A stretch of 24,000 bases of DNA from Candidatus Aquicultor secundus (GTDB taxonomy: Bacteria; Actinomycetota; Aquicultoria; Aquicultorales; Aquicultoraceae): contig PFFU01000039.1 of assembly GCA_002783345.1 (NCBI GenBank), forward strand, positions 1 to 24,000, in the 5' to 3' direction. Shown in pieces: positions 2,766-23,221 of the stretch. The position numbers were made by a program, and so were the translations under genes. The number at the start of each line of letters is the position of its first letter. Position 1 is the stretch's first letter. The notes beneath the pieces were generated by a model. The model saw nothing but the letters and a program-made list of their open reading frames with translations, did not search any database and was not told the DNA's origin.

Positions 2766-3035
2766 ATGAGTGACGACGCAATGCGCCAGATTGAAGAGTT
2801 GCGCAAACAGATCGACGATATCGACCGCGAGATCGTCCGGAAACTTAATACGAGAGCCGAGCTTGCGTTAAAGATCAGGGTGTTTAAGGCGCAGAGCGAC
2901 CTGCCTCTTTACGACCCCGGACGGGAAGAGAATATATTCCAGAAGATTACCACGGCAAATAACGGTCCCCTCTACGATGACGACCTCAGGGGTATCTACG
3001 AAACCATTCTGCACACGATGAAAAGCTTGGATTAG
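2766..3035 (+). CDS. chorismate mutase (AroQ class, stand-alone)
   Basis: 89-aa helical ORF with GGAGG upstream. The N-terminal pattern LRKQIDDIDREIVRKLNTRAELALKI and the later PLYDPGREENI match AroQ-type chorismate mutase. Confidence 0.8.
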   Translation: MSDDAMRQIEELRKQIDDIDREIVRKLNTRAELALKIRVFKAQSDLPLYDPGREENIFQKITTANNGPLYDDDLRGIYETILHTMKSLD

Positions 3036-3044
3036 GTGAAAGGC

Positions 3045-3809
3045 ATGATTGAAAGCAAACATATGACGATTATCTCCGGGCCGTGCGCGGTTGAAAGCCG
3101 CGAGCAGGTGATGGAGGTTGCAAAAACGATTTCTGAACTCGGCCTCACATATATGCGGGGCGGAGCATTCAAGCCAAGGACATCCCCATACAGCTTTCAA
3201 GGCCTTGAGGAAAAAGGGCTAAAATACCTCACCGAAGCCACAAAGCAATATGGGCTCAAAGCGGTAACCGAAGTTATGGATACCGAGCATGTCGAACTGG
3301 TTCTGCGGTATGCTGATATGATTCAGGTTGGCACGCGCAACATGGCGAACTTTGCGCTTTTAAAGAAAATCGGGGCCTTAACCGCCGAGAGCAAGACGCC
3401 GGTTATCCTTAAAAGAGGAATGTCGGCTACGATTGATGAGTGGCTTCTTGCAACCGAATATATTACAACCGCGGGTAACCCCAACGTTATCCTATGCGAG
3501 CGCGGGATAAGAACGTTTGAACCTTCGACCCGCTTTACACTCGATCTCTCCGCCGTGCCGGTGGTCAAAAAGCTTAGCCCGCACCCAATTATCGTGGATA
3601 TAAGCCATGCGATGGGTCGCGCCGACTACATCATCCCGATGAGCCGCGCAGCGGTCGCCGCAGGCGCCGACGGCCTGATGATCGAGGTCCATCCAAACCC
3701 CAAAAAAGCCCTCTGCGACGGCGCGCAATCCCTGACACCCGAGCAGCTAAAGCAGTTGGTGGGTGAAGTTAAAGCTATAGCTGAAGTTGTCGGCAAGCGT
3801 GTGGTCTAA
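3045..3809 (+). CDS. aroF: 3-deoxy-7-phosphoheptulonate (DAHP) synthase, type I-beta
   Basis: Motifs GPCAVES, RGGAFKPRTSPYSFQGL, ERGIRTFE and DISHAMGR are typical of the KDO8PS-like DAHP synthases. I prefer ATG 3045 (AGGTGA 5 nt upstream). GTG 3036, as in the ORF track, is an alternative start. Confidence 0.9.
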   Translation: MIESKHMTIISGPCAVESREQVMEVAKTISELGLTYMRGGAFKPRTSPYSFQGLEEKGLKYLTEATKQYGLKAVTEVMDTEHVELVLRYADMIQVGTRNMANFALLKKIGALTAESKTPVILKRGMSATIDEWLLATEYITTAGNPNVILCERGIRTFEPSTRFTLDLSAVPVVKKLSPHPIIVDISHAMGRADYIIPMSRAAVAAGADGLMIEVHPNPKKALCDGAQSLTPEQLKQLVGEVKAIAEVVGKRVV

Positions 3810-3838
3810 TCTCAATCGTTAATCTTGCATTAATCTTG

Positions 3839-3867
3839 TTGACAAATAGCGACCGCCTCTTTAGAAT
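3839..3867 (+). promoter_or_regulatory. sigma70-type promoter for the riboswitch-1 operon
   Basis: TTGACA (3839-3844), 17-nt spacer, TAGAAT (3862-3867). The predicted start near 3874 is immediately before the aptamer. Confidence 0.7.
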
Positions 3868-3875
3868 TATAATTC

Positions 3876-3948
3876 AGCGATGGAGCTCGCTAACTTGCAT
3901 TTGATGCTAATGGCTCCTGCCTTGAGGGGTAGGGGCCTATTTTTTTTT
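3876..3948 (+). promoter_or_regulatory. fluoride riboswitch (crcB motif), copy 1, with expression-platform terminator
   Basis: The RNA reads AGCG-AUGGAGCU-CGCU-AACUU-GCAU(UUG)AUGC-UAAU-GGCUCC-UGC. P1 is AGCG/CGCU. The P1 loop GGAGCU (3882-3887) can pair with GGCUCC (3912-3917) as a pseudoknot. P3 is a small hairpin, and UAAUG..CCU is the conserved 3' tail. The layout parallels the Thermotoga petrophila aptamer as I recall it (GGCG-AUGAGGCC-CGCC-CAAACU-GCCC..GGGC-UGAUG-GCCUC-UAC). The 3' pseudoknot strand is also the 5' arm of a 10-bp terminator stem (3912-3921 / 3928-3937), which is followed by T9 (3940-3948). Confidence 0.8.
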
Positions 3949-3974
3949 GCTTTGAAAGGAGACGCATAGGTTTT

Positions 3975-5090
3975 ATGAACGAACTTTTTACAACCGCTGT
4001 TATGGGATTTTTGGTGTTGCTGGCAAGCATAATTTCGGTCGAAGTCGGGATATCGGTTGCGCTAATAGAGATATTTTTGGGCGTCGTTGCAGGGAACCTT
4101 GGCATAAAGGTATTGCCCTGGGTTAGTTTCCTGGGAACCTTTGCAGGCGTAGTTTTAACGTTTCTAGCAGGTGCTGAGGTAGATATACCACTTTTAAGGG
4201 CTAAATTTAAAGAGAGCGCACTAATAGGCGGTTTAAGCTTTCTTTTCCCGTTTGTGCTCACGTTTTTATTTGCATGGTTTATAGCCGGATGGGATTTACG
4301 CGCGTCAGAAATTGCAGGCATCGCGCTCTCTACGACATCTCTTGCGGTAGTTTATGCGGTGCTTGTGGAAACGGGCTTAAATCGAACACAGATAGGAAAA
4401 CTCATAATGGCGGCGACCTTTATAACAGACCTGGCTACAGTTCTGGCATTAAGTATACTTTTCGTTCAGGTTAATGCCTTTACGATAGTCTTCATGCTGG
4501 TGTCTATCGCTTTGATTATTATCTTACCCAAGATCAGCCCGTGGTTTTTTAAGAGATATGGAGAACGGGTAATTGAGCCTGAAATAAAGCTCATGTTTTT
4601 CGTGCTCTTTCTCTTGATGTATTTAGGCGACCTTGGCTTAAGCCACGCAGTACTGCCCGCCTTTATATTGGGACTTGTCCTGTCCCAATTATATGAGAAA
4701 AACAAGCTACAGTTGCAGAGAATGCGTGTTGTTGGGTTTGCTTTGTTAACTCCATTCTTCTTTCTAAAGGCCGGGATGAATATATCCATTAGCGTTTTGA
4801 TAGCTAACTTATCTCTCTTGGCCGCCTTTTTTGTAGTAAAAATTGCCGCTAAGTTTGTAGGCGTACTGCCGGTTTCTAGGCGATATATACCTGAGTCGGC
4901 TACTTATACAACGCTTTTAATGAGTACAGGGCTAACTTTTGGCACTATCTCTTCTATTTATGGGCTGAATGCAGGTATCATTAATAAAGCGCAATTTTCG
5001 ATACTGGTAGCCGTTGTTATTGCCAGTGCTATTATTCCGACAATTATTGCGCAGCGTTTCTTCTCGCCGAAGATCGGTTTTGAAGAGTAA
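3975..5090 (+). CDS. cation:proton antiporter (Na+/H+ exchanger family, CPA-type, no KTN domain)
   Basis: 371-aa polytopic membrane ORF with AAAGGAG upstream. The hydrophobic repeat pattern and motifs (LGVVAGNLG, FLAGAEVD, ALLTPFFFLKAGM) are typical of PF00999-type exchangers. Confidence 0.85.
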   Translation: MNELFTTAVMGFLVLLASIISVEVGISVALIEIFLGVVAGNLGIKVLPWVSFLGTFAGVVLTFLAGAEVDIPLLRAKFKESALIGGLSFLFPFVLTFLFAWFIAGWDLRASEIAGIALSTTSLAVVYAVLVETGLNRTQIGKLIMAATFITDLATVLALSILFVQVNAFTIVFMLVSIALIIILPKISPWFFKRYGERVIEPEIKLMFFVLFLLMYLGDLGLSHAVLPAFILGLVLSQLYEKNKLQLQRMRVVGFALLTPFFFLKAGMNISISVLIANLSLLAAFFVVKIAAKFVGVLPVSRRYIPESATYTTLLMSTGLTFGTISSIYGLNAGIINKAQFSILVAVVIASAIIPTIIAQRFFSPKIGFEE

Positions 5091-5150
5091 TGAGTCTTGA
5101 CGTTATTATTATAAAAACGCGGGAGAGTTTTACTTATCGGGAGGTAGGTT

Positions 5151-5573
5151 ATGTTTAAGAAGATATTGGTTGCTAATGATGGCTCTGAAGGCGCAATAAG
5201 AGCCCTTGAGAAAGGAATTGAGTTGGCGCAAATATTTGGCGCCGAGCTTTGGTCGCTCTCTGTTGAGGGGCCGCTACCGGCTTATGCTGCAATCATTGGC
5301 GAAGTAGAAGAGGCCCGTATCGAAAGGGAAAATTATTTTAAGGCTATAGAAGACGAAGCAGAGAGAATAGCGAAGGAAAAAGGCGTTGAGCTTAAGACTA
5401 AAGTCGCCTATGGACATCCCGCTGACGTGATCATCCGGTTTGCGGAAGAAAGGAACTTCGATTTAATAATCCTTGCGCATAAAGGGCATACGCTGGCGGA
5501 TCGTTTCTTACTGGGAAGCACTTCGGACAAGGTTGCAGATCACTCAAAAAGCAGTGTTCTTATAGTTAAATAA
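5151..5573 (+). CDS. universal stress protein (UspA family)
   Basis: 140-aa ORF with GGGAGG upstream. The MFKKILVANDGSE start and the C-terminal LGSTSDKVADHSKSSVLIV ATP-binding-type motif are typical of Usp domains. Confidence 0.9.
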   Translation: MFKKILVANDGSEGAIRALEKGIELAQIFGAELWSLSVEGPLPAYAAIIGEVEEARIERENYFKAIEDEAERIAKEKGVELKTKVAYGHPADVIIRFAEERNFDLIILAHKGHTLADRFLLGSTSDKVADHSKSSVLIVK

Positions 5574-5664
5574 GCTGCTAAAAGTGGTAAACATCATAAT
5601 CAAAGCACCGTTCGGATTAATAGCATAAGCATTGGTTTTCGGATATAATTGCATCAGTATTGGA

Positions 5665-5694
5665 TTGACGATATTTCAAGCTATCGCTTATACT
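5665..5694 (+). promoter_or_regulatory. sigma70-type promoter for the riboswitch-2 operon
   Basis: TTGACG (5665-5670), 18-nt spacer, TATACT (5689-5694). Confidence 0.6.
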
Positions 5695-5716
5695 AATCTC
5701 TCAAAACGAATACGAT

Positions 5717-5789
5717 CGCGATGGGGCTCGCATAAATCGCTTTAATGCTAATAGCTCCTACGAGTTTGCGTAGGGGCTATTATTTTTAT
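5717..5789 (+). promoter_or_regulatory. fluoride riboswitch (crcB motif), copy 2 (minimal P3), with expression-platform terminator
   Basis: The RNA reads CGCG-AUGGGGCU-CGCA-UAAAUC-GC(UUUAAU)GC-UAAU-AGCUCC-UAC. It aligns without gaps to copy 1 across 36 nt (5723-5758 vs 3882-3917, 26 identical). The pseudoknot is GGGGCU (5723-5728) with AGCUCC (5753-5758). The 3' strand is embedded in an 11-bp terminator stem (5752-5762 / 5769-5779), followed by UUAUUUUUAU. Between the two copies, the pseudoknot pairs change between Watson-Crick and G-U while staying paired, and the terminator stem has a true compensatory C-G to G-C swap. Confidence 0.7.
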
Positions 5790-5801
5790 GAGGTGATTTA
5801 A

Positions 5802-7592
5802 TTGTTGATCAATTACGCAGAAGCGAAAACAGAGACACTTATGGCTTTAGGTAAGCTTAAAGCAAACTTGAATCATGATGAGTCGCTTGGAAATAACAAT
5901 ATGCTCGAATATGCGATTGAAAAGCTTACTGATAACAAGTTTAACCTTGTAGTTATGGGTGAATTCAAACGAGGTAAAACTTCGTTTATCAATGCTTTAC
6001 TTGGCGAATCCGTATTGCCGATGGCTGTAGTCCCGCTTACCTCAATTATAACCGAACTGGTCTACGGGGATATCCCTTCAGCAGAGGTCATTTTTGAAGA
6101 CGGCAAGAGAAAGACCATATCTCTTGAAGTGCTTGACGATTATGTGACGGAGCGTAAGAATCCCAGCAACGAGAAAGGTGCCAAGAAAGTTATTGTCAGG
6201 TATCCGTCCAAGTACTTACAGGAGGGCGTCATATTAGTCGACACCCCCGGTGTCGGTTCGATCTACGAACATAACACCGAGGTCTCTTACGACTATCTTC
6301 CTGAAGCGGATGCGGTTATATTTCTTGTCTCTTCCGACCCACCCATAAGCAAGACCGAGATAGCGTTTCTTGCCGATGTCAAGGAATACATAGAAAAACT
6401 CTTTTTTATCCAAAATAAGATTGATTATCTGTCGGATGGTGAGAGGGAAGAATCCCTCGCATTTAATAGAAAGGTTTTAGAACAAGCATTAGGCAACAGC
6501 GTAACTTTGATCCCGCTTTCTGCCAGGCTGGCCCTTCAGGCCAGACAGAACGGTAACCAAGAGATGCTTCTTAAAAGCAATTTGCCTGAGTTTGAGCGTG
6601 AACTTTCGGAATTTTTACTTAAAGAGAAGGGCATGCTCATATTAACTGTTGCAGTGAATCGTGGCTTACAGGCTACGAACAACATACTGCGGCATATCGA
6701 GCTTGAGCTTAAAACCCTTGAGGCTCCTATCGAGATTGTCGAAAAGCAACTGGGGGATTTCAAGAAATACGTTGAGCAAATCGAGCGAAAGCGCCTGGAT
6801 GCGCATTACCTTATGAAGGGGCAAATCAGCGAGCTTCTTAAGCAATACGACGAGGAAGTGGAGACTTTAAATAAGGAACGGCTACCGGAAGCAATTAATG
6901 AGCTTGAATCTGAATTTCAAAAGGTTAAAGCCGGACCTAAAAGAGAAATCGCCGAGAAGTTAGATGAGGCCGTCAGAGGCATCATTCTTTCAATCTTTAC
7001 CCGCTGGCGAAGCGAACAAGAGAAAAAGATGTCGAGCGGTTTTCAGGCGGTCGCCGAGCGCCTCATTGAAGAGACGAACAAAATCGCTCAAGAGATTGCG
7101 AGCACGGCATCAGAAATATTCGGGCTCTCCCTTTCACAAATCGTCGATACCGTTATGCTTATTGATAGCAAGCGTTTCTATTACCTCCTTGACGAAGAGA
7201 CAACCAGTATTGATCTTCTCGTCATGCCGGTACGAGGCATGCTTCCAAAAGTGTTTGCCGCAAAGATGATCTATACAGATTCAAAACAGAAACTGACGGA
7301 TCTTTTCGGCATGCATTGCGGCCGAGTCCGGGGCGATCTTTATGAGAGACTAGATGAGAGCCTGCTTTCATTAAAGGGTATGCTGAATAGCCGGGTATCC
7401 GAGATGGTAAGTAGCGTCGAATCGGCCGTTGTAAGAGGGCTTGAATACCGGCAGAAAAATGAGAGCGAAATCCAAAGAAGAAAGCTTGAGCTTGAGGCTT
7501 ACAAGGAAAAGGTTGAAAAAATCGACCTGGAATTAAAGGCGCTTTCAGCTAAAATAGATAACGAAAGAGGCGTAAATGAAGCAGCAAAATAA
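5802..7592 (+). CDS. dynamin-family GTPase (bacterial dynamin-like protein)
   Basis: 596-aa ORF with a TTG start 5 nt after GAGGTGA. GTPase motifs are G1 GEFKRGKTS, G3 DTPGVGS and G4 NKID, in the order and spacing of the Dynamin_N domain. The C-terminal half is long and predicted helical/coiled-coil. Confidence 0.85.
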   Translation: MLINYAEAKTETLMALGKLKANLNHDESLGNNNMLEYAIEKLTDNKFNLVVMGEFKRGKTSFINALLGESVLPMAVVPLTSIITELVYGDIPSAEVIFEDGKRKTISLEVLDDYVTERKNPSNEKGAKKVIVRYPSKYLQEGVILVDTPGVGSIYEHNTEVSYDYLPEADAVIFLVSSDPPISKTEIAFLADVKEYIEKLFFIQNKIDYLSDGEREESLAFNRKVLEQALGNSVTLIPLSARLALQARQNGNQEMLLKSNLPEFERELSEFLLKEKGMLILTVAVNRGLQATNNILRHIELELKTLEAPIEIVEKQLGDFKKYVEQIERKRLDAHYLMKGQISELLKQYDEEVETLNKERLPEAINELESEFQKVKAGPKREIAEKLDEAVRGIILSIFTRWRSEQEKKMSSGFQAVAERLIEETNKIAQEIASTASEIFGLSLSQIVDTVMLIDSKRFYYLLDEETTSIDLLVMPVRGMLPKVFAAKMIYTDSKQKLTDLFGMHCGRVRGDLYERLDESLLSLKGMLNSRVSEMVSSVESAVVRGLEYRQKNESEIQRRKLELEAYKEKVEKIDLELKALSAKIDNERGVNEAAK

Positions 7593-8769
7593 AAAAATCT
7601 TGGGCTTTTCAAGGAACGTTTTCTTCGTTGGCTTAACCAGTTTTTTTACGGATATTTCCACGGAGATGGTGTATCCGCTCATTCCGATATTTCTCACCAC
7701 GGTACTAGGTGCCCCGGTTGCAATCGTCGGTTTAGTTGAGGGTATTGCCGAGTCCACGGCAAGTTTACTTAAAGTTATTTCCGGTTGGCTATCCGACCGC
7801 ACCCAAAGACGCAAAAGGTTAACCGTACTTGGCTACGGCCTTGCCGCAATTGCAAAACCGTTACTTGCCCTTTCTTTTGTGTGGTGGCAGGTGTTAATTG
7901 CCCGGTTCGTCGACCGCTTCGGGAAAGGCGTCAGAACATCACCGAGGGATGCTTTGATAGCAGATTCAACCAGCAGCGAGGATTACGGCAAGGCGTTTGG
8001 CTTTCATAGAGGGATGGATACGCTGGGCGCCGCCTTTGGACCCCTGATCGCCTTTGCCGCTTTGCCCCTGTTACATAATAACTTCAGGTTGTATTTCAGC
8101 TTTGCCATTATCCCGGCCGTTATCGGTGTTGTTGTTCTTGCTCTTTTTGTTAAAGAAAAAGTAAGAGCTGCAAAAGTTGAAAATCTAAGGCTAAGTCTTA
8201 AGCCCTTTAACAGGCAGTTTAAGCTGTTTCTACTTATAGTTTTAATCTTTACCGTTGGCAACTCAAGCGACGCTTTTCTCATTTTAAGAGCAAACAATGT
8301 GGGTGTCGCGGTTGGCTTAATCCCCCTTGTTTATTTCGTTTTTAATACGGTTTACGCGCTTGCTTCCACGCCTATCGGCGCCCTCTCAGATAGAATCGGG
8401 AGAAAAGTCGTAATCATCGCCGGCTACTTGATATTTGCCATCGTTTACCTTGGTTTTGCTCTGGTAAAAAGTCCATTTACCATCTGGCTTCTATTTGCAG
8501 CCTATGGTCTGTATTATGCTTTTACCGAGGGTATCTTTAAAGCCTTTACCGCCGATCTTGTCCCGGAGAATTTGCGAGGCACGGCATACGGCTTTCTTAG
8601 TTTAGTGTTAGGGATTGCACTGCTTCCTGCAAGTCTAATAGCAGGATTTTTGTGGGATAAGATCAGCCCAAGCGCACCGTTTTTCTTCGGCAGCGCCGTC
8701 TCACTTATTGCGCTTGTGCTTTTCATGGCTTTAATTCCAAACGACAACCGCAATAACGCCGACGCGTAA
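7576..8769 (+). CDS. MFS transporter (unknown substrate)
   Basis: 397-aa ORF with about 12 hydrophobic segments. The loop 2-3 motif GWLSDRTQRRKR is MFS-like. The ATG overlaps the end of the dynamin gene by 17 nt, and AGAGG lies upstream. Confidence 0.85.
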   Translation: MKQQNKKILGFSRNVFFVGLTSFFTDISTEMVYPLIPIFLTTVLGAPVAIVGLVEGIAESTASLLKVISGWLSDRTQRRKRLTVLGYGLAAIAKPLLALSFVWWQVLIARFVDRFGKGVRTSPRDALIADSTSSEDYGKAFGFHRGMDTLGAAFGPLIAFAALPLLHNNFRLYFSFAIIPAVIGVVVLALFVKEKVRAAKVENLRLSLKPFNRQFKLFLLIVLIFTVGNSSDAFLILRANNVGVAVGLIPLVYFVFNTVYALASTPIGALSDRIGRKVVIIAGYLIFAIVYLGFALVKSPFTIWLLFAAYGLYYAFTEGIFKAFTADLVPENLRGTAYGFLSLVLGIALLPASLIAGFLWDKISPSAPFFFGSAVSLIALVLFMALIPNDNRNNADA

Positions 8770-8889
8770 AAGATTCATCACCTATGAGGAATATACAAAA
8801 CCATCTGCTGCCTAATGTCCCAAGAAATAGTAAAATGTTCTTTGTGCGCATCACGGGTAAGTCCGAAAATCGCGATAAGAGGAAAGCAA

Positions 8890-10992
8890 ATGCTGGATAA
8901 CTTAAATCAAGTTCAACAAGAAGCGGTAACACATAAAGACGGGCCGGTTCTCATCCTTGCGGGGGCGGGAAGCGGTAAGACAAGGGTGCTTACATACAGG
9001 ATCGCCTACCTTATAAAAGAAAAGGATATAAGTCCTTTCGATATCCTGGCCATTACCTTTACAAACAAGGCGGCTAACGAGATGAAGGAGCGCATCGCCG
9101 CGCTCGTGGGGAGGGTGAGCCGGGCGATGTGGATAAGCACATTCCACTCGACATGCGCGAGGGTGCTGCGACAGGAGGCGGAGCGCCTTGGGTACAGCAA
9201 GAACTTCGTCATCTACGACAGCAACGATTCGGGCAGGCTTATAACTTACTGCATGAGGGATTTAAACATCGATAACAAGCGCTACCCATCGAATAAAGTC
9301 GCCGCCGCCATTTCAAGCGCCAAGAATGAATTGATGGATGCCGAAACCTTTCGCGCGCGCGCGCAAACATACGCCGAGCGGGTGGTCGCCGATGTCTACA
9401 AGCTGTACCAGGATCGCATCTACAAGAGCAACGCGTTGGATTTTGATGATCTCATCATGGTGACGGTAAACCTGTTCCAGCTCTTCCCGTCGGTTCTCGA
9501 TGCCTACCAGGAGAAGTTCAAATATATCCTGGTCGACGAGTATCAGGATACCAACCCTGCCCAGTATGAGCTGATAAGAACGCTGGCCGGCAAGCACCGC
9601 AACCTTTGCGTCGTCGGAGACGCGGACCAGTCGATCTATAGGTTCCGCGGGGCGGATATACGAAATATCCTCGAGTTTGAGCGCGACTACCCGGATTGCC
9701 GCGTTATCAAGCTCGAGCAAAACTATCGCTCGACAAAGACGATCCTTAACGCGGCTAATTATGTCATGCAGAACAACCGCTCGCGCAAGCCGAAGGCGCT
9801 CTGGACCGAAAATGGCAAGGGAGACCCCATCGTCCGTTACCAGGGCGAAAACGAACACGAGGAGGCGACCTTTGTCGCCGGCGAAATCGAGCAGATGGTA
9901 AAGAAAGGCAGGCAGTATAAAGAATTCTCCGTGTTTTATCGCACGAACGCACAATCACGCGTTCTTGAGGAGATTTTCCTGCGCTACGGCGTACCCTATA
10001 GGATTATCGGGGGCTTGAAGTTCTACGAGCGCGCCGAGATCAAGGATGTCCTGGCTTACCTGCGCGTGCTTTCGAATCCGCAGGATACGGTCAGCTTAAA
10101 GAGGATTATCAACGTCCCGCGACGTGGACTCGGCAACACGACAATCCAGAAAGTTGACGCTTACTCGCTCAAGCACAACATCAGTTTTTCCCAGGCGCTC
10201 AACAACGTCGACGATATAAACCAGCTCTCGACCGCAGCGGTTAAGAATATCAAAAAGTTCCTGGTCTTACTCGACGAGCTACAGCGGGTTAAGGAGAAAG
10301 AGACCCTGGAGAACCTTACTAAGGCATTGCTGGATGCGACCGGCTACCTTGCAATGTATGATGCTTTAGGGACGGTGGAGGCAGAAGGCAGGGCGGAGAA
10401 CGTCCGTGAGTTTATCGGCGTTATCAAAGAGTTCGAGGAGAGCCGCGCCTCCTGTACGCTCGACGAGTTTCTAGAAGAGATAGCCCTGATCGCGGATATC
10501 GATAGCTACGATGACGACAATAACGCGGTGACCCTGATGACGGTGCACAATGCTAAGGGCCTCGAGTTTAATATCGTCTTTATCGTCGGTATGGAAGACG
10601 GCATTTTCCCCCACATCCGGTCGATGACTGAGACCGCCGAGCTTGAAGAGGAGCGCCGTCTTTTCTACGTCGGTATCACCCGGGCCATGCAGAAGCTCTA
10701 CTTATGTAACGCCTGGTCGCGAAATCTTTGGGGCGGGGTAAACTACAACTCCCCGTCGCGCTTCTTGCACGAGATCCCTGCGGATCTCCTCGAGAGCGCC
10801 GAGCAGGTTGATGTAAAAGCCAAACCGCCGTCTGAAATCGGCGCTTTCAATATCGGGGATAACGTCTTTCATAAAAAATTCGGAGAGGGCCGCATAACGG
10901 CCGTTAAGGGTGCCGACCAGGTAACGGTTCTGTTCGCTGCCGAGGGTGAAAAAACCCTGCTTCTTAATTACGCCCCGCTTGAGAAACGGTAA
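8890..10992 (+). CDS. pcrA: ATP-dependent DNA helicase PcrA/UvrD (SF1)
   Basis: Helicase motifs are AGAGSGKT, TFTNKAA, DEYQDTN, VGDADQSIYRFRGA, QNYRS, TVHNAKGLEF and VGITRA. I prefer the ATG at 8890 (AGAGGAAAG upstream; the N-terminus MLDNLNQVQQEAV is typical). The 25 extra codons in the ORF track have no support. Confidence 0.9.
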   Translation: MLDNLNQVQQEAVTHKDGPVLILAGAGSGKTRVLTYRIAYLIKEKDISPFDILAITFTNKAANEMKERIAALVGRVSRAMWISTFHSTCARVLRQEAERLGYSKNFVIYDSNDSGRLITYCMRDLNIDNKRYPSNKVAAAISSAKNELMDAETFRARAQTYAERVVADVYKLYQDRIYKSNALDFDDLIMVTVNLFQLFPSVLDAYQEKFKYILVDEYQDTNPAQYELIRTLAGKHRNLCVVGDADQSIYRFRGADIRNILEFERDYPDCRVIKLEQNYRSTKTILNAANYVMQNNRSRKPKALWTENGKGDPIVRYQGENEHEEATFVAGEIEQMVKKGRQYKEFSVFYRTNAQSRVLEEIFLRYGVPYRIIGGLKFYERAEIKDVLAYLRVLSNPQDTVSLKRIINVPRRGLGNTTIQKVDAYSLKHNISFSQALNNVDDINQLSTAAVKNIKKFLVLLDELQRVKEKETLENLTKALLDATGYLAMYDALGTVEAEGRAENVREFIGVIKEFEESRASCTLDEFLEEIALIADIDSYDDDNNAVTLMTVHNAKGLEFNIVFIVGMEDGIFPHIRSMTETAELEEERRLFYVGITRAMQKLYLCNAWSRNLWGGVNYNSPSRFLHEIPADLLESAEQVDVKAKPPSEIGAFNIGDNVFHKKFGEGRITAVKGADQVTVLFAAEGEKTLLLNYAPLEKR

Positions 10993-12534: not shown

Positions 12535-12786
12535 TTCTGCGGCTCTCGCGACCGTTCGGCTCTCAAAATTAAAATATATCGTCGACTTTATAGCTTTGTT
12601 GACAATCTACACAACGCCGTGTTAGCTTAAATTCAATGTCACTAATGCGTTTAATAGCGATACAGCCACTATATTGTGATGATGGGTACTTGCTTAGCTG
12701 TCATTCTGAAGCGTTGTGAAGAATCTCGAGTGCACTTGGGGTGATTGTCACTTATCAGCGTCTAGGTGTAGCTAAAGCGATATAAT

Positions 12787-13068
12787 AGCGATAATGGGAA
12801 CGAGTAGGTCTGAGGTTGACCGCTAAAGCGACCCGGAGAAGGTGAAAGCCGGGGCGGCGAGAAGACCGAACATGGCCCCAGAGCTTCCGGAAGAAACGGC
12901 GCCAACCGTGCGCCCGAGTAGAACCGGACGGTTCCAGCCGTTACCTGGATTAAGAGCAGCCGGCACCTGATAAGTGAAGACACTTCCTCGACGCGGAAGG
13001 GGCCGGGTGAATTTGGGTGGTACCACGGGAAATTTCCTCTCGTCCCATATGGGATTGAGGGGTTTTTT
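12787..13068 (+). promoter_or_regulatory. T-box leader (tRNA-sensing riboswitch), AUG/Met specifier, with terminator
   Basis: Stem I has base AGC/GCU with a GA-type K-turn (GAUAA / GA). The specifier loop carries AACGAGUA on the 5' side and GAAC-AUG-G (AUG 12872-12874) on the 3' side. The AG bulge is AAAGCGA and the distal loop is AGAAGGUGAAAG. An F-box CCGUUA lies at 12938-12943. The T-box sequence AAUUUGGGUGGUACCACGGGA lies at 13010-13030, and its UGGU bulge matches an A73 discriminator. A terminator (13034-13062) is followed by T6 (13063-13068). Confidence 0.85.
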
Positions 13069-13129
13069 GTTATGTAAGACAAAAATAAAAGCCCAGCCGA
13101 AAAGGTGGGCGCGGTGCAAGGGAGGTTAT

Positions 13130-14302
13130 ATGGCCGTCAAGAAAACGTACGAAGAGATTAACGAAAAGATTCGACGCGGCGAAGCGGTTGTCGTGACCGC
13201 TGAAGAAATCATCGACATCGTCAAAGACGAGGGCGTTGCGAAAGCAGCCCGGAAGGTAGATGTCATAACCACGGGGACGTTTGGGCCCATGTGCTCGACT
13301 GGGGCTTTCATCAACTTCGGCCACTCCGACCCACCGATAAGAATGGCGAAAGTTTGGCTTAACGATGTGCCGGCGTACGCGGGTGTGGCGGCGGTCGATG
13401 CATACATCGGTGCGACCGAGCTTTCCGAGGTCTTAGGTATGGCCTACGGCGGCGCGCACGTCATAGAAGATTTGATCGCCGGCAAGAAAGTGAAGCTGGT
13501 GGCAAAATCCTACGGCACCGACTGCTATCCAAGAAAAGAGATAGAAACCTATATAAACAAGGATGTCATAAACGAGGCATACCTGTTTAATCCGAGGAAC
13601 GCCTATCAGAACTACGCGGTAGCCGTAAACTCGTCGGCTCGCATTTTGTATACCTATATGGGGACGTTACTCCCGCGCCTCGGCAATGCCACATACTGCA
13701 GCGCGAGCCAGTTGAGCCCGTTAATAAACGACCCGTTCTATAGGACGATCGGCATAGGCACAAGGGTATTTTTGGCCGGCACGCAAGGCTATGTCGCCTG
13801 GCAGGGCACGCAGTTTAATCCGCAGCAGGCGCGCGGCGAAAACGGTGTCCCGCTCTCACCGGCCGGCACACTGGCGCTGATCGGCAATCTAAAACAAATG
13901 AATACCGATTTCATAAGGGCCGCGACCTTCCATAACTATGGTACGACCATGTTTGTCGGCGTCGGCGTGCCCATACCCGTCCTCGACGAGGATATTGTGG
14001 AGAAGGCCAGCATAAGCGATAAGGATATTTACACGACGATAGTGGACTACAGCGTCCCGCAGCGCTCAAAACCGAATTTCGGCCGGGTAAGTTACGCCGA
14101 GCTGAGAAGCGGCAAGATAGAGATAAACGGCAAGCAGGTGCGAACGGCCCCGATATCGAGTTACACCAGGGCAAGAAAGATTGCCGAGACGTTGAAGACC
14201 TGGGTTAAGGAAGGAAAGTTCTTCGTCCAGCAGCCGGTCGAAACGTTCAAGCTTGGTCAGTCGGTGAAGCCTCTTGAGATCGTTACAGAGGAGGAGATTT
14301 AA
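13130..14302 (+). CDS. homocysteine biosynthesis protein (COG1900/DUF39 family, sulfide-dependent route)
   Basis: The ORF starts at ATG 13130 (GGAGG 13121-13125), giving 391 aa. The upstream 52 codons of the track ORF overlap the T-box leader. The N-terminus MAVKKTYEEINEKIRRGEAVVVTAEE and motifs such as DVITTGTFGPMCS are typical of this family. It is paired with the NIL-ferredoxin gene, as in the methanogen MA1821/MA1822-type system. Confidence 0.8.
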   Translation: MAVKKTYEEINEKIRRGEAVVVTAEEIIDIVKDEGVAKAARKVDVITTGTFGPMCSTGAFINFGHSDPPIRMAKVWLNDVPAYAGVAAVDAYIGATELSEVLGMAYGGAHVIEDLIAGKKVKLVAKSYGTDCYPRKEIETYINKDVINEAYLFNPRNAYQNYAVAVNSSARILYTYMGTLLPRLGNATYCSASQLSPLINDPFYRTIGIGTRVFLAGTQGYVAWQGTQFNPQQARGENGVPLSPAGTLALIGNLKQMNTDFIRAATFHNYGTTMFVGVGVPIPVLDEDIVEKASISDKDIYTTIVDYSVPQRSKPNFGRVSYAELRSGKIEINGKQVRTAPISSYTRARKIAETLKTWVKEGKFFVQQPVETFKLGQSVKPLEIVTEEEI

Positions 14303-14704
14303 ATGGCAAAGAAAAAAATCGTCCTTCACTTCCCGGAGGAAAGCATAGAAAAACCGTTAACGTACCACCTGGTAAAGGACTATGATCTTATCCCGAACAT
14401 CCTCCGTGCGCAAATCGATGAAAACGAGGGTATGTTGGTTATGGACCTTGAGGGTGCGCCCGATCAGATACAAAAAGGCATTGCCTTTTTAAAAGAGCAA
14501 AACGTCGGCATCCAGGAAGCGATTAAAGACATCATCGTAGACCGCGAGCGATGCGTAGATTGCGGCTCCTGCACCGGCGTCTGCCGCCCCGGCGCTCTCA
14601 CAATGGGTTCCGACTGGAAACTCGCCTTCGACCAGGAAAAATGCGTTTTCTGCCAGCTTTGCATCAACGCATGCCCGGTACGAGCGATAAAAGTCCAATT
14701 CTAA
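14303..14704 (+). CDS. NIL-domain / 2x[4Fe-4S] ferredoxin protein (homocysteine-synthesis partner)
   Basis: 133-aa ORF with GAGGAGG upstream and an ATG that directly abuts the preceding stop. It has an N-terminal NIL-like domain and two CxxCxxCxxxCP clusters (CVDCGSCTGVCRP, CVFCQLCINACP). Confidence 0.8.
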   Translation: MAKKKIVLHFPEESIEKPLTYHLVKDYDLIPNILRAQIDENEGMLVMDLEGAPDQIQKGIAFLKEQNVGIQEAIKDIIVDRERCVDCGSCTGVCRPGALTMGSDWKLAFDQEKCVFCQLCINACPVRAIKVQF

Positions 14705-21622: not shown

Positions 21623-21706
21623 TTCTAGTTATAATTGTTAAAGACATGTAACAAAACAGCCGATAATAACTCCTACACGCATCATTATTTTTTGAGGGGT
21701 ATTTAA

Positions 21707-23221
21707 GTGCGTTCCACTACATCCGACGATTATAAACAACGTTCGTCTTTAAAGGGAAGATTGTATATTCTTCTGGCGGTCATGTTGCTGCCGTTTATCG
21801 CTTTTTCAATTTATAAGGCAATTGATATTAACAACCGCCTTGAAGCGGAAATACAGGCAAAAAACCTGAGCCTTGTAAAAAGCGTGGCGCATGACATCGA
21901 TGAGTACATCAACTCTACCGGTGAAGTTCTTATTCCTATCGCGAACTTAAAAGATGTGCGCACCCAAAACTGGCCGGCGGTTAAAATCTACCTGGATCAG
22001 ATTGTTCCGAAATACCCGTTTTATCATCTCATCGCTTTTGTCGACGTTAAAGGCAACCTCAAGGTCGCTGCAATGTCCGAGAAGATGGCAAAAAGCGAGG
22101 ACGCTAAAAAAGTAAACGTAAGCGATACCGGATGCTATCGCCGGGGCATAGTCGCGAACGGCATAGCGGTTGGCGATTTCATGTATAGCAAACTCACGGG
22201 AATGCCGGTGACGCACGTGACATATCCGGTTTTTGATATGTCGGGCAAAAGAATCGGCCTTGTGGCGGCGGCCTTTGATCTAACGAAGATCCAGAATAAA
22301 CTCATGAAGACTAATATCACCCAACACACGGTGATCAGTGTCGTCGATAACATGGGCACGTATATCGCCAGGAACAAAGACCCAAAGAAATGGGTAGGCA
22401 AGAATATCGCCGATGCCGATCGCTATAAGCTCATGCTGGGTAAGACCGAGGGAACATATAAAGCGATGTCTGCAGACGGAACGAATAGGGTGTATGCGTT
22501 CACCACGGCATCAAAGGTTCCATGGATAGTTAGAGCGGGTATTGATGAAAAGTATATCCTCGATCAGGTTCGAGCAGAGTTAATCAACCATTTTGCCGTC
22601 TTCATACCGCTCTTGCTAATAGCCATAATCGGTTGGGTGTGGACGGAACGAGATGTTAACAAGCTGCACCAAAAAACCGAGTACTTAAGTATTATAGATC
22701 CGCTAACAAGGCTCTATAATTGCAGGAAGCTTAATAACGACTTAAGCCTCGAACTCAGTCGAGCAAAGCGCTGTAAGAGACAGCTATCATTTGCAATGAT
22801 CGATATAGACCATTTTAAGCAATACAACGATAATAACGGCCATCAGCTGGGTGACGAGGCCCTTGCATCGGTTGCCGAAATTATTCGAAATGCGGTGCGA
22901 GATATCGATTCCGTGTACCGTTATGGCGGCGAAGAGATGTGCGTTGTTCTCCCAGAGACGGATAAAGTGGGCGCGGCGGCCGTTGCCGAGCGTATTAGAG
23001 CCGATGTCGAGCAAGCGCGGTTTATAGGAGAGGAAAACCAGCCACTCGGTAAGCTAACCATATCTATCGGCGTAGCCACATATCCAAACGATTCTATCTC
23101 TAAAGAAGGCATTATTAAAAGTGCGGACATCGCTCTTTATAAAGCAAAAGACAAAGGCAGAAATAAAGTCGAGATGTACCGCGACCATGCATGCAGCTGC
23201 TCCCACGCGGCGAACATGTAG
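21707..23221 (+). CDS. sensor diguanylate cyclase (periplasmic Cache-like domain + GGDEF)
   Basis: 504-aa ORF with a GTG start 8 nt after GAGGGG. Two TM helices flank a roughly 250-aa extracytoplasmic domain. The GGDEF domain has a GGEEM active-site variant and an RDID (RxxD) I-site 5 residues upstream. Confidence 0.9.
   Translation: MRSTTSDDYKQRSSLKGRLYILLAVMLLPFIAFSIYKAIDINNRLEAEIQAKNLSLVKSVAHDIDEYINSTGEVLIPIANLKDVRTQNWPAVKIYLDQIVPKYPFYHLIAFVDVKGNLKVAAMSEKMAKSEDAKKVNVSDTGCYRRGIVANGIAVGDFMYSKLTGMPVTHVTYPVFDMSGKRIGLVAAAFDLTKIQNKLMKTNITQHTVISVVDNMGTYIARNKDPKKWVGKNIADADRYKLMLGKTEGTYKAMSADGTNRVYAFTTASKVPWIVRAGIDEKYILDQVRAELINHFAVFIPLLLIAIIGWVWTERDVNKLHQKTEYLSIIDPLTRLYNCRKLNNDLSLELSRAKRCKRQLSFAMIDIDHFKQYNDNNGHQLGDEALASVAEIIRNAVRDIDSVYRYGGEEMCVVLPETDKVGAAAVAERIRADVEQARFIGEENQPLGKLTISIGVATYPNDSISKEGIIKSADIALYKAKDKGRNKVEMYRDHACSCSHAANM

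Follow-up and report, generated by a model that had tools for sequence, protein, structure and literature searches.

A predicted fluoride riboswitch precedes the gene of a solitary dynamin-like GTPase in Candidatus Aquicultor secundus and in most of the related loci examined

A survey of fluoride resistance lists exporters, Na+/H+ antiporters, pyrophosphatase, HAD proteins, enolase, formate hydrogen lyase, and chorismate mutase (PMC11139923). Bacterial dynamin-like proteins (DLPs) are mostly encoded by genes paired in operons (PMC6104087). IniA, a mediator of membrane fission, is switched on by cell-wall drugs (PMC6715688), and DynA gathers where pore-formers or phage have damaged the membrane, which implicates it in membrane surveillance and repair (PMC12998192, PMC8844932). 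Here we analyze a 24,000-nucleotide stretch of Candidatus Aquicultor secundus (Actinomycetota; contig PFFU01000039.1, positions 1–24,000), referred to throughout as the window. In it, the gene for a 596-residue dynamin-like GTPase is preceded by a fluoride aptamer of the crcB motif and an overlapping intrinsic terminator, and its 3′ end overlaps the start of a gene for a transporter of the major facilitator superfamily (MFS). The same arrangement of aptamer and GTPase gene recurs in distantly related bacteria.

The GTPase unit consists of the following features, of which the aptamer is called aptamer 2 because another lies upstream of it.

5665–5694, forward strand: promoter of the GTPase-MFS unit, TTGACG-18-TATACT, 10 of 12 consensus matches.
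5709–5767, forward strand: fluoride aptamer 2 (crcB motif; RF01734, 30.0 bits, E = 7.6e-7).
5749–5788, forward strand: intrinsic terminator, a 14-pair stem at 5749–5782 followed by TTTTT (the U-run).
5733–5744 pairing with 5789–5800, forward strand: candidate helix that would sequester the Shine-Dalgarno (SD) sequence GAGGUG at 5790–5795, predicted by minimum free energy (MFE) folding and by RNAalifold.
5802–7592, forward strand: dynamin-like GTPase gene, 596 aa, TTG start, BDLP/IniA class (Dynamin_N, 5.3e-31).
7565–7592, forward strand: coupling junction, with the SD sequence AAGAGG at 7565–7570, the MFS start codon ATG at 7576, and the GTPase stop codon TAA at 7590–7592, giving a 17-nt overlap.
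7576–8769, forward strand: MFS transporter gene, 397 aa (MFS_1, 8.4e-47).

The original prediction, made from the letters of the window, had described a promoter, a crcB-type aptamer, an overlapping terminator, two open reading frames (ORFs), and their 17-nt overlap; all lie at or within a few bases of where it had put them, and the overall layout, in which the aptamer and terminator precede a dynamin-like GTPase gene tightly coupled to an MFS gene, was correctly read.

The evidence that ties the GTPase to fluoride comes from its relatives. Homologs that are 35–40% identical over their full length (∼590 aa) occur in large numbers in Desulfobacterota, Nitrospirota, Bacillota, and further phyla. 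When 1.84 billion cluster representatives (clusters at 50% identity) were searched with a profile, 6,356 matched at E ≤1e-30, and there were more than 150 full-length matches below 1e-145. We assembled 80 GTPase loci from species-representative genomes, these being the best-scoring 80 of at least 525 relatives, and searched them with a covariance model (R1) built from validated aptamers of related loci. Upstream sequence was sufficient for evaluation in 78 of the loci. A same-strand aptamer lies within 300 nt 5′ of the GTPase start in 64 of these 78 (median distance 68 nt), and another eight loci carry one farther upstream, so that up to 72 of 78 are linked when longer operons are counted; three of the eight are clear aptamer-Na+/H+ exchanger (NHE)-universal stress protein (Usp)-GTPase operons, and in a fourth the aptamer heads a long enolase-containing operon. 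Since R1 had been trained on the same loci, the result was rechecked against an independent standard, the curated model of Rfam with the gathering score as threshold. The aptamer adjoining the GTPase gene passed in 15 of 17 loci of a first batch (44–62 bits), in all 17 of a second batch made up of loci that a regular expression had missed (38.7–58.7 bits), and in five of five others, namely Thermincola potens (47.8 bits), Desulfosoma caldarium (37.2 bits), and three Aquicultor relatives, for a total of 37 confirmed loci among the 39 tested. The regular-expression scan for the crcB core had detected only ∼25 of the 80, a strong undercount relative to R1 and Rfam. That crcB motifs recur upstream of GTPase homologs, a point raised by the original prediction, is thus confirmed.

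Among the host lineages of the loci are Desulfobacterota, Nitrospirota, Bacillota, Actinomycetota, KSB1, Bacteroidota, Aquificales, and Ignavibacteriales, and the linkage spans at least eight phyla and ∼90% of the members examined. Cultured hosts are Thermincola potens, Desulfosoma caldarium, and Desulfallas sp. Bu1-1. In the Thermincola potens locus (L161) an extra aptamer at 804–868 lies before uncharacterized genes (917–2608), namely an unannotated 227-aa ORF and then one for a GGGtGRT-domain protein, with crcB-crcB-DUF190 following. A KSB1 locus (L024) has tandem aptamers at 4651–4717 and 4793–4857 before the GTPase gene (69.7 and 48.8 bits with R1) and a third aptamer 3′ of it, in front of an NHE-Usp pair.

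Within the window itself the aptamer scores below the curated threshold. A permissive search of 5640–5840 (201 nt) matched the Rfam Fluoride model at 5709–5767 with 30.0 bits against a gathering score of 34, and the second-best Rfam family in this interval had an E-value of 0.32. The E-value of 7.6e-7 belongs to the 201-nt search and becomes ∼1e-4 when scaled to the whole window. A whole-window Rfam scan at gathering thresholds did not report aptamer 2 and returned a T-box at 12782–13050 as its sole family; the two Fluoride matches of the window emerged only when an E-value threshold was applied to short stretches. We aligned both window copies with 21 Rfam-validated aptamers of related loci. 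Across these 23 sequences, both window aptamers retain 12 of 12 invariant columns, with the core elements GAUGG..., CU-R-AU, and CUCCU. The pseudoknot of aptamer 2, formed by 5723–5728 (GGGGCU) and 5753–5758 (AGCUCC), is paired in 100% of cells of the alignment, and a U-A to C-G double change within it is found in five of the 23 sequences, including both window copies. The low score of aptamer 2 is explained by its weakened P1 and P3 helices: P1 (5718–5720/5729–5731) has three Watson-Crick pairs (G-C, C-G, G-C) and a C.A mismatch, and P3 (5739–5741/5746–5748) has a G-C and a C-G pair followed by U.U.

The closest loci of the Aquicultor lineage (L001, L163, L164, and L165, with GTPases 72–82% identical to that of the window) place this variant in context. 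Orthologous leader aptamers score above the gathering threshold in L163 (40.2 bits), L164 (47.3 bits), and L165 (41.4 bits), so a covariance-model hit above this threshold, whose absence the original prediction had named as a refutation, is missing for the window copy and present for its orthologs. P3 reads GCC/GGC in these three loci, and the U.U variant is common to the window and L001, whose GTPase is 77% identical to that of the window and whose flanks have diverged from it. When the five lineage loci are aligned, the segment from P1 to the start codon, which comprises the aptamer, the terminator, and the SD sequence, is near-invariant, while the 5′ flank and promoter region have diverged completely and are unalignable. 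This pattern argues that aptamer 2 is an ortholog of bona fide fluoride aptamers and is kept under constraint.

The leader has the geometry of a transcriptional switch. Aptamer 2 begins ∼15 nt 3′ of the promoter at 5665–5694; promoter-like sites in this region are no more numerous than in shuffled sequence, so the argument for this promoter is its position and not the count. The 5′ arm of the terminator (5749–5762) wholly contains the 3′ strand of the pseudoknot (5753–5758), an overlap by which ligand binding should turn the genes on, and the aptamer 3′ strand likewise forms the 5′ arm of a hairpin with a U-run in 56 of 64 related leaders. Folding of the 101-nt leader gives an MFE of −35.7 kcal/mol (z = −5.2). 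The helix between the J/P3 strand of the aptamer and the SD region is also predicted, both in the MFE fold and in an RNAalifold consensus drawn from the leaders of the five lineage loci, with compensatory double changes at three pairs. The helix suggests, tentatively, a combined transcriptional and translational control of the GTPase gene. The same pairing may account for the unusual P3 sequence of aptamer 2.

We consider it very probable that this leader is a fluoride-responsive ON switch, its geometry being read from sequence and comparison and its mechanism taken from the known riboswitch class. As long as fluoride is absent, the terminator (14 bp, 5749–5782) and its U-run would form, and in any RNA that reads through, the J/P3 strand of the aptamer would probably pair with the Shine-Dalgarno sequence. 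Once fluoride is bound, the pseudoknot would sequester the 5′ arm of the terminator, allowing the polymerase to read through and freeing the SD sequence. The MFS gene would then be translated by coupling, by way of the 17-nt overlap and its own SD sequence inside the end of the GTPase gene.

The protein under this predicted control is 100% identical to a “dynamin family protein” annotated in Candidatus Aquicultor secundus. Its gene carries the SD sequence GAGGTG at 5790–5795, and the TTG start is supported because Tyr5 is nearly invariant in homologs. The translation contains GEFKRGKTS, DTPG, and NKID, and among 97 homologs the residues Gly53, Lys59, Thr80, Asp147–Gly150, Asn205, and Asp208 of motifs G1–G4 are invariant. 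Sequence searches of the PDB matched Nostoc BDLP (1.7e-20), IniA (6.4e-18), a Campylobacter DLP pair, and then mitofusins. An AlphaFold2 model computed from the 97-sequence alignment (mean predicted local distance difference test [pLDDT] 78, predicted template modeling [pTM] score 0.61) shows N-terminal helices (residues 2–43), the GTPase domain, and a long helical hairpin formed by residues 276–440 and 483–595. Foldseek matched the model over its full length to 2j68/2j69 (BDLP) and 6j72/6j73 (IniA) with E ∼1e-22 and TM scores of 0.42–0.51. The consensus of the stalk tip is rich in aromatics (F, F, W, FYY, F, FF) and contains no hydrophobic segment, a composition that would suit peripheral, interfacial binding to membranes without proving it. 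Directly past the tip, the returning stalk helix starts with the family motif G-R-V-R-x-D-F-x-x-R-x-x-K-S (residues 507–520, window ∼7320–7361), which is invariant or nearly so in the 97 homologs, the part from Gly507 to Arg516 being invariant. This basic motif might bind lipid head groups or anions. No NCBIfam model reaches its cut-off for the 596-aa protein, and assignments to DynA (73 bits against 1600), LeoA/HP0731 (22.9 against 325), and CrfC (20.2 against 1146) were rejected. By these sequence criteria the GTPase is a member of an unnamed, usually solitary subfamily of the BDLP/IniA class.

The 397-aa product of the second gene matches only MFS families, with MFS_1 in two stretches and MFS_1_like over residues 31–369, and no NCBIfam model at its cut-off. 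The order GTPase-MFS is kept in four of four Aquicultor-lineage relatives, and L163 has the identical 17-nt overlap, so the pairing proposed originally is conserved within the lineage; elsewhere it is not, an MFS gene directly 3′ of the GTPase gene being found in only ∼6 of the 80 loci, the window included. As a contrast sample we took 80 metagenomic loci centered on MFS homologs 45–57% identical to that of the window. An upstream same-strand aptamer was present in 13 of these 80 and the GTPase in 4–5, which means that by the same method the aptamer linkage is ∼16% for MFS-centered loci versus ∼90% for GTPase-centered loci. We therefore rejected a conserved GTPase-MFS module, and the idea that the MFS protein is a dedicated fluoride pump, part of the original prediction, finds no support because so few MFS-centered loci carry the aptamer. 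On the present comparison it is the GTPase, not the pair, that is the dedicated member of the fluoride regulon, and the MFS gene is a facultative, lineage-specific passenger.

Downstream partners of the GTPase gene vary among the loci (enolase, NHE, HAD, a HEAT/Zn-ribbon protein, or MFS), and in at least 18 loci the gene 3′ of the GTPase lies on the opposite strand; the GTPase gene is the constant element of the loci and the following gene is not. Clustering of the ORFs in the 80 loci yielded as recurrent neighbors NHE (19 loci), the MFS subfamily (16), Usp (14), enolase (11), the HEAT-repeat/Zn-ribbon protein (9), CrcB (8), DUF190 (8), HAD hydrolase (6), HIT (6), Mrp-type antiporter subunits (5), and DUF6062 (5). 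These neighbors are largely the known fluoride regulon.

In the window, a second fluoride unit (unit 1), which the original prediction had not included, lies directly upstream of the GTPase unit.

3839–3867, forward strand: promoter of unit 1, TTGACA-17-TAGAAT, 11 of 12 consensus matches, the best promoter-like site in 3700–5700.
3867–3926, forward strand: fluoride aptamer 1 (crcB motif; RF01734, 30.0 bits, E = 8.6e-7).
3912–3948, forward strand: terminator 1, an 11-pair stem at 3912–3937 followed by a T-run, overlapping the 3′ strand of aptamer 1.
3975–5090, forward strand: CPA2-type Na+/H+ exchanger gene, 371 aa (Pfam Na_H_Exchanger, 2.1e-36).
5151–5573, forward strand: universal stress protein gene, 140 aa (Pfam Usp, 1.5e-32).

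Na+/H+ exchangers and Usp are classic cargo of fluoride riboswitches, and in many other loci the genes of both are again found as a pair next to that of the GTPase. The NCBIfam CPA2 match of the exchanger is below its cut-off. Aptamer 1, likewise under the gathering score (30.0 against 34 bits), has a P1 of four pairs (AGCG/CGCU) with a compensatory A-U and a P3 of three pairs (GCA/UGC). The layout is thus a two-unit fluoride island, aptamer 1-NHE-Usp-aptamer 2-GTPase-MFS. A terminator scan found none between the Usp gene and the GTPase unit, so the latter may also receive read-through RNA from unit 1, gated by aptamer 2. No CRCB or CLC domain was found in any annotated ORF of the 24-kb window.

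Several further observations concern the surroundings of the island and of its relatives. Genes for chorismate mutase (CM_2) and DAHP (3-deoxy-D-arabino-heptulosonate 7-phosphate) synthase lie just 5′ of it in the window (2766–3809) and in L164 (340–1385), and L165 has a chorismate mutase (CM_2) gene at 1815–2093 in the same position. Chorismate mutase has been reported as common fluoride-riboswitch cargo (PMC11139923); a custom-model search found no aptamer belonging to the window gene itself. On the other side, a PcrA/UvrD helicase gene (8815–10992) starts 46 nt past the MFS stop codon with no terminator-like site between them, an order also seen in L165, and fluoride-dependent read-through into the helicase gene is possible; mutS is an old association of the crcB motif (Weinberg 2010). 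A candidate partner of the GTPase, not encoded in the window, is a protein of ∼128 aa that combines HEAT repeats with a zinc ribbon at its N terminus; its gene comes directly after the GTPase gene or the GTPase-MFS pair in nine loci, among them L019 (6644–7030), L021, L022, L043, L048, L001, and L164 (6057–6443). L001 carries an extra fluoride aptamer (8558–8623) before a DUF6062 gene (8635–9351), as do several other loci. The T-box leader of the window (12782–13050, forward strand, 111.3 bits) precedes an HcyBio gene (13070–14302) and a NIL/4Fe-4S ferredoxin gene (14303–14704) and presumably senses a tRNA to regulate the synthesis of methionine or homocysteine. A partial match to the custom aptamer model at 21649–21682 (forward strand, 13.7 bits, E = 0.025), before a dCache/GGDEF gene (21707–23221), is most likely due to chance.

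Taken together, the best explanation, and one we regard as probable, is that the window contains a fluoride island with a fluoride-induced membrane-remodeling GTPase. In this scheme the GTPase would be a stress-induced remodeler that binds the membrane peripherally, and the MFS protein would be a lineage-specific accessory. We put the chances at about even that, during exposure to fluoride, the GTPase keeps the cytoplasmic membrane intact or reseals it; an intact membrane would protect the ion gradients needed by the rest of the regulon (Fluc/CrcB and the Na+/H+ and Mrp antiporters). Such a role would fit the neighbors of the GTPase gene, channels and antiporters whose work either depends on ion gradients or restores them, and it would fit a report that fluoride triggers lysis in diverse bacteria (10.1101/2025.02.28.640611). 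Several observations weigh against the scheme or limit its reach. The membrane role is deduced from the relatives IniA and DynA; the stalk tip (residues 444–481) is modeled at pLDDT <50, and neither a transmembrane segment nor a hydrophobic paddle was found there in the family consensus. Aptamer 2 is below threshold (30.0 against 34 bits), with three pairs in P1 and two G-C pairs plus U.U in P3, and given this weakness a fluoride response in this particular genome is a prediction. The SD-sequestering helix is based on five related sequences. Six of the 78 evaluable loci have no aptamer in the available flank, even with filters off, and because the 80 loci are the best-scoring subset, the linkage rate describes that subset.

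The weakness of aptamer 2 raises the question of whether it is a relic that no longer binds fluoride, which would leave the unit constitutively terminated or otherwise regulated. Its Rfam score, the three-pair P1 with a C.A mismatch, and the U.U in place of the C-G found in relatives as the third P3 pair would all agree with decay. Yet all invariant nucleotides and the pseudoknot are retained, as are the terminator and the SD sequence, and the U.U variant is common to the window and L001 despite their diverged flanks. Moreover, an aptamer with a 3-bp P3 in L030 scores 50 bits, and aptamer 1 is equally sub-threshold yet precedes the canonical NHE-Usp cargo. We therefore think a decayed switch very doubtful. 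If the switch works, the GTPase might still be induced for a different reason, namely that metal fluorides (MgF3− or AlFx with GDP) inhibit dynamin-type GTPases and overproduction restores a housekeeping activity. Inhibition is the explanation given in review literature for the riboswitch association of enolase and pyrophosphatase (PMC11139923), enolase is a neighbor in 11 loci and lies directly 3′ of the GTPase gene in three, and among the Foldseek matches are dynamin-family structures, 8eew and 5gom for example, that were trapped with GDP-AlFx or in transition-like states. Such compensation is nonetheless unlikely in our view, as a dedicated stress protein is the better fit when ∼90% of the members examined are themselves under riboswitch control, a constitutive paralog was not seen in the loci, and no named housekeeping DLP model reached its cut-off.

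The tight coupling of the two genes in the window and in every Aquicultor-lineage relative could instead reflect a joint device in which the MFS protein exports fluoride or a fluoride complex and the GTPase assists it or sheds membrane vesicles laden with fluoride. IniA-type DLPs do mediate fission (PMC6715688), MFS homologs occur in 16 of 80 GTPase loci, and the 24-kb window has no CrcB or CLC-F gene. However, the MFS gene directly follows the GTPase gene in ∼6 of 80 loci, opposite-strand genes often follow instead, the MFS-centered loci are poor in aptamer (13 of 80) and GTPase (4–5), and several GTPase loci already possess CrcB and DUF190. We also know of no MFS fluoride exporter, and an export or vesiculation device of this kind seems to us highly improbable. 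A more far-reaching reading would make fluoride both the inducer and a direct effector. Dynamin-family G domains dimerize in the transition state, and GDP with a metal fluoride (MgF3− or AlFx) traps that state; conceivably, GDP and metal fluoride could thus lock the GTPase, produced only at high cytoplasmic fluoride, into a long-lived clamp that tethers or seals membranes without nucleotide turnover. This would be a long shot, but if true, membrane failure would be a primary and conserved target of fluoride toxicity.

Whichever role the GTPase plays, its link to the riboswitch appears to be new. For crcB, neither a dynamin nor a GTPase is named in the text or supplements of Weinberg 2010, and no riboswitch-dynamin link was found in a 2020 review of orphan riboswitches, a 2022 review of riboswitch ligands, the 2024 resistance survey, or full-text searches; the original prediction had known of no description of a fluoride-induced GTPase paired with an MFS pump, and a listing in the tables of Baker et al. 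2012 is still possible. Both this class of riboswitch and its action through a terminator are established, and what is qualitatively new is the dynamin-like class of effector in the regulon. The roles of bacterial DLPs are largely open, and few have a defined inducer; here a whole subfamily would have a small-ion inducer with a well-understood RNA sensor, which makes its function directly testable, and the cultured hosts offer experimental entry points. The near-obligatory link to the GTPase points to a membrane-integrity arm that is missing from accounts of fluoride resistance (PMC11139923), and the genes may aid the engineering of fluoride-tolerant strains for the degradation of organofluorines.

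Compared with described RF01734 leaders on a terminator platform, such as the crcB leader of Bacillus cereus, both leaders of the window have the same core, the same layout of P1, P3, and pseudoknot, and the same position in the 5′-UTR (untranslated region). The overlap of the terminator 5′ arm with the pseudoknot 3′ strand is also the same, and the typical NHE and Usp cargo is nearby. They differ in their scores of 30.0 bits and shortened P1 and P3 helices, and the leader of aptamer 2 probably adds the SD-sequestering helix.

Among DLPs, mycobacterial IniA of the iniBAC operon and BDLP have the closest solved folds. IniA is of similar size to the window GTPase and matches it over its full length (Foldseek 4e-22; sequence 6e-18) at ∼19% identity. 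It is co-encoded with a second DLP, IniC, and with IniB, whereas the window GTPase gene is solitary, and it is without a link to fluoride. Its induction is ascribed to a protein regulator that responds to envelope stress, and IniA is not known to be under a riboswitch. The window GTPase shares its GTPase domain and the helical hairpin of neck and trunk with BDLP from Nostoc punctiforme (2j68/2j69) and DynA from Bacillus subtilis. BDLP, however, has a defined hydrophobic paddle where the window GTPase has an aromatic-rich tip that is modeled with low confidence and is not strongly hydrophobic, and DynA is a two-headed fusion, against whose cut-off of 1600 bits the window GTPase scores 73. Unlike most bacterial DLP genes, that of the window is unpaired. 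Its affinities within the fluoride regulon are with Fluc/CrcB, CLC-F, Na+/H+ antiporters, enolase, pyrophosphatase, and HAD phosphatases, whose genes have the same regulator and occupy the same islands; the regulon lists in the literature searched contain no dynamin-like GTPase as a controlled gene. Known fluoride effectors act by export, by pH and ion homeostasis, or by replacement of inhibited enzymes (PMC11139923), and a membrane-remodeling GTPase would be a mechanistically different arm of the response.

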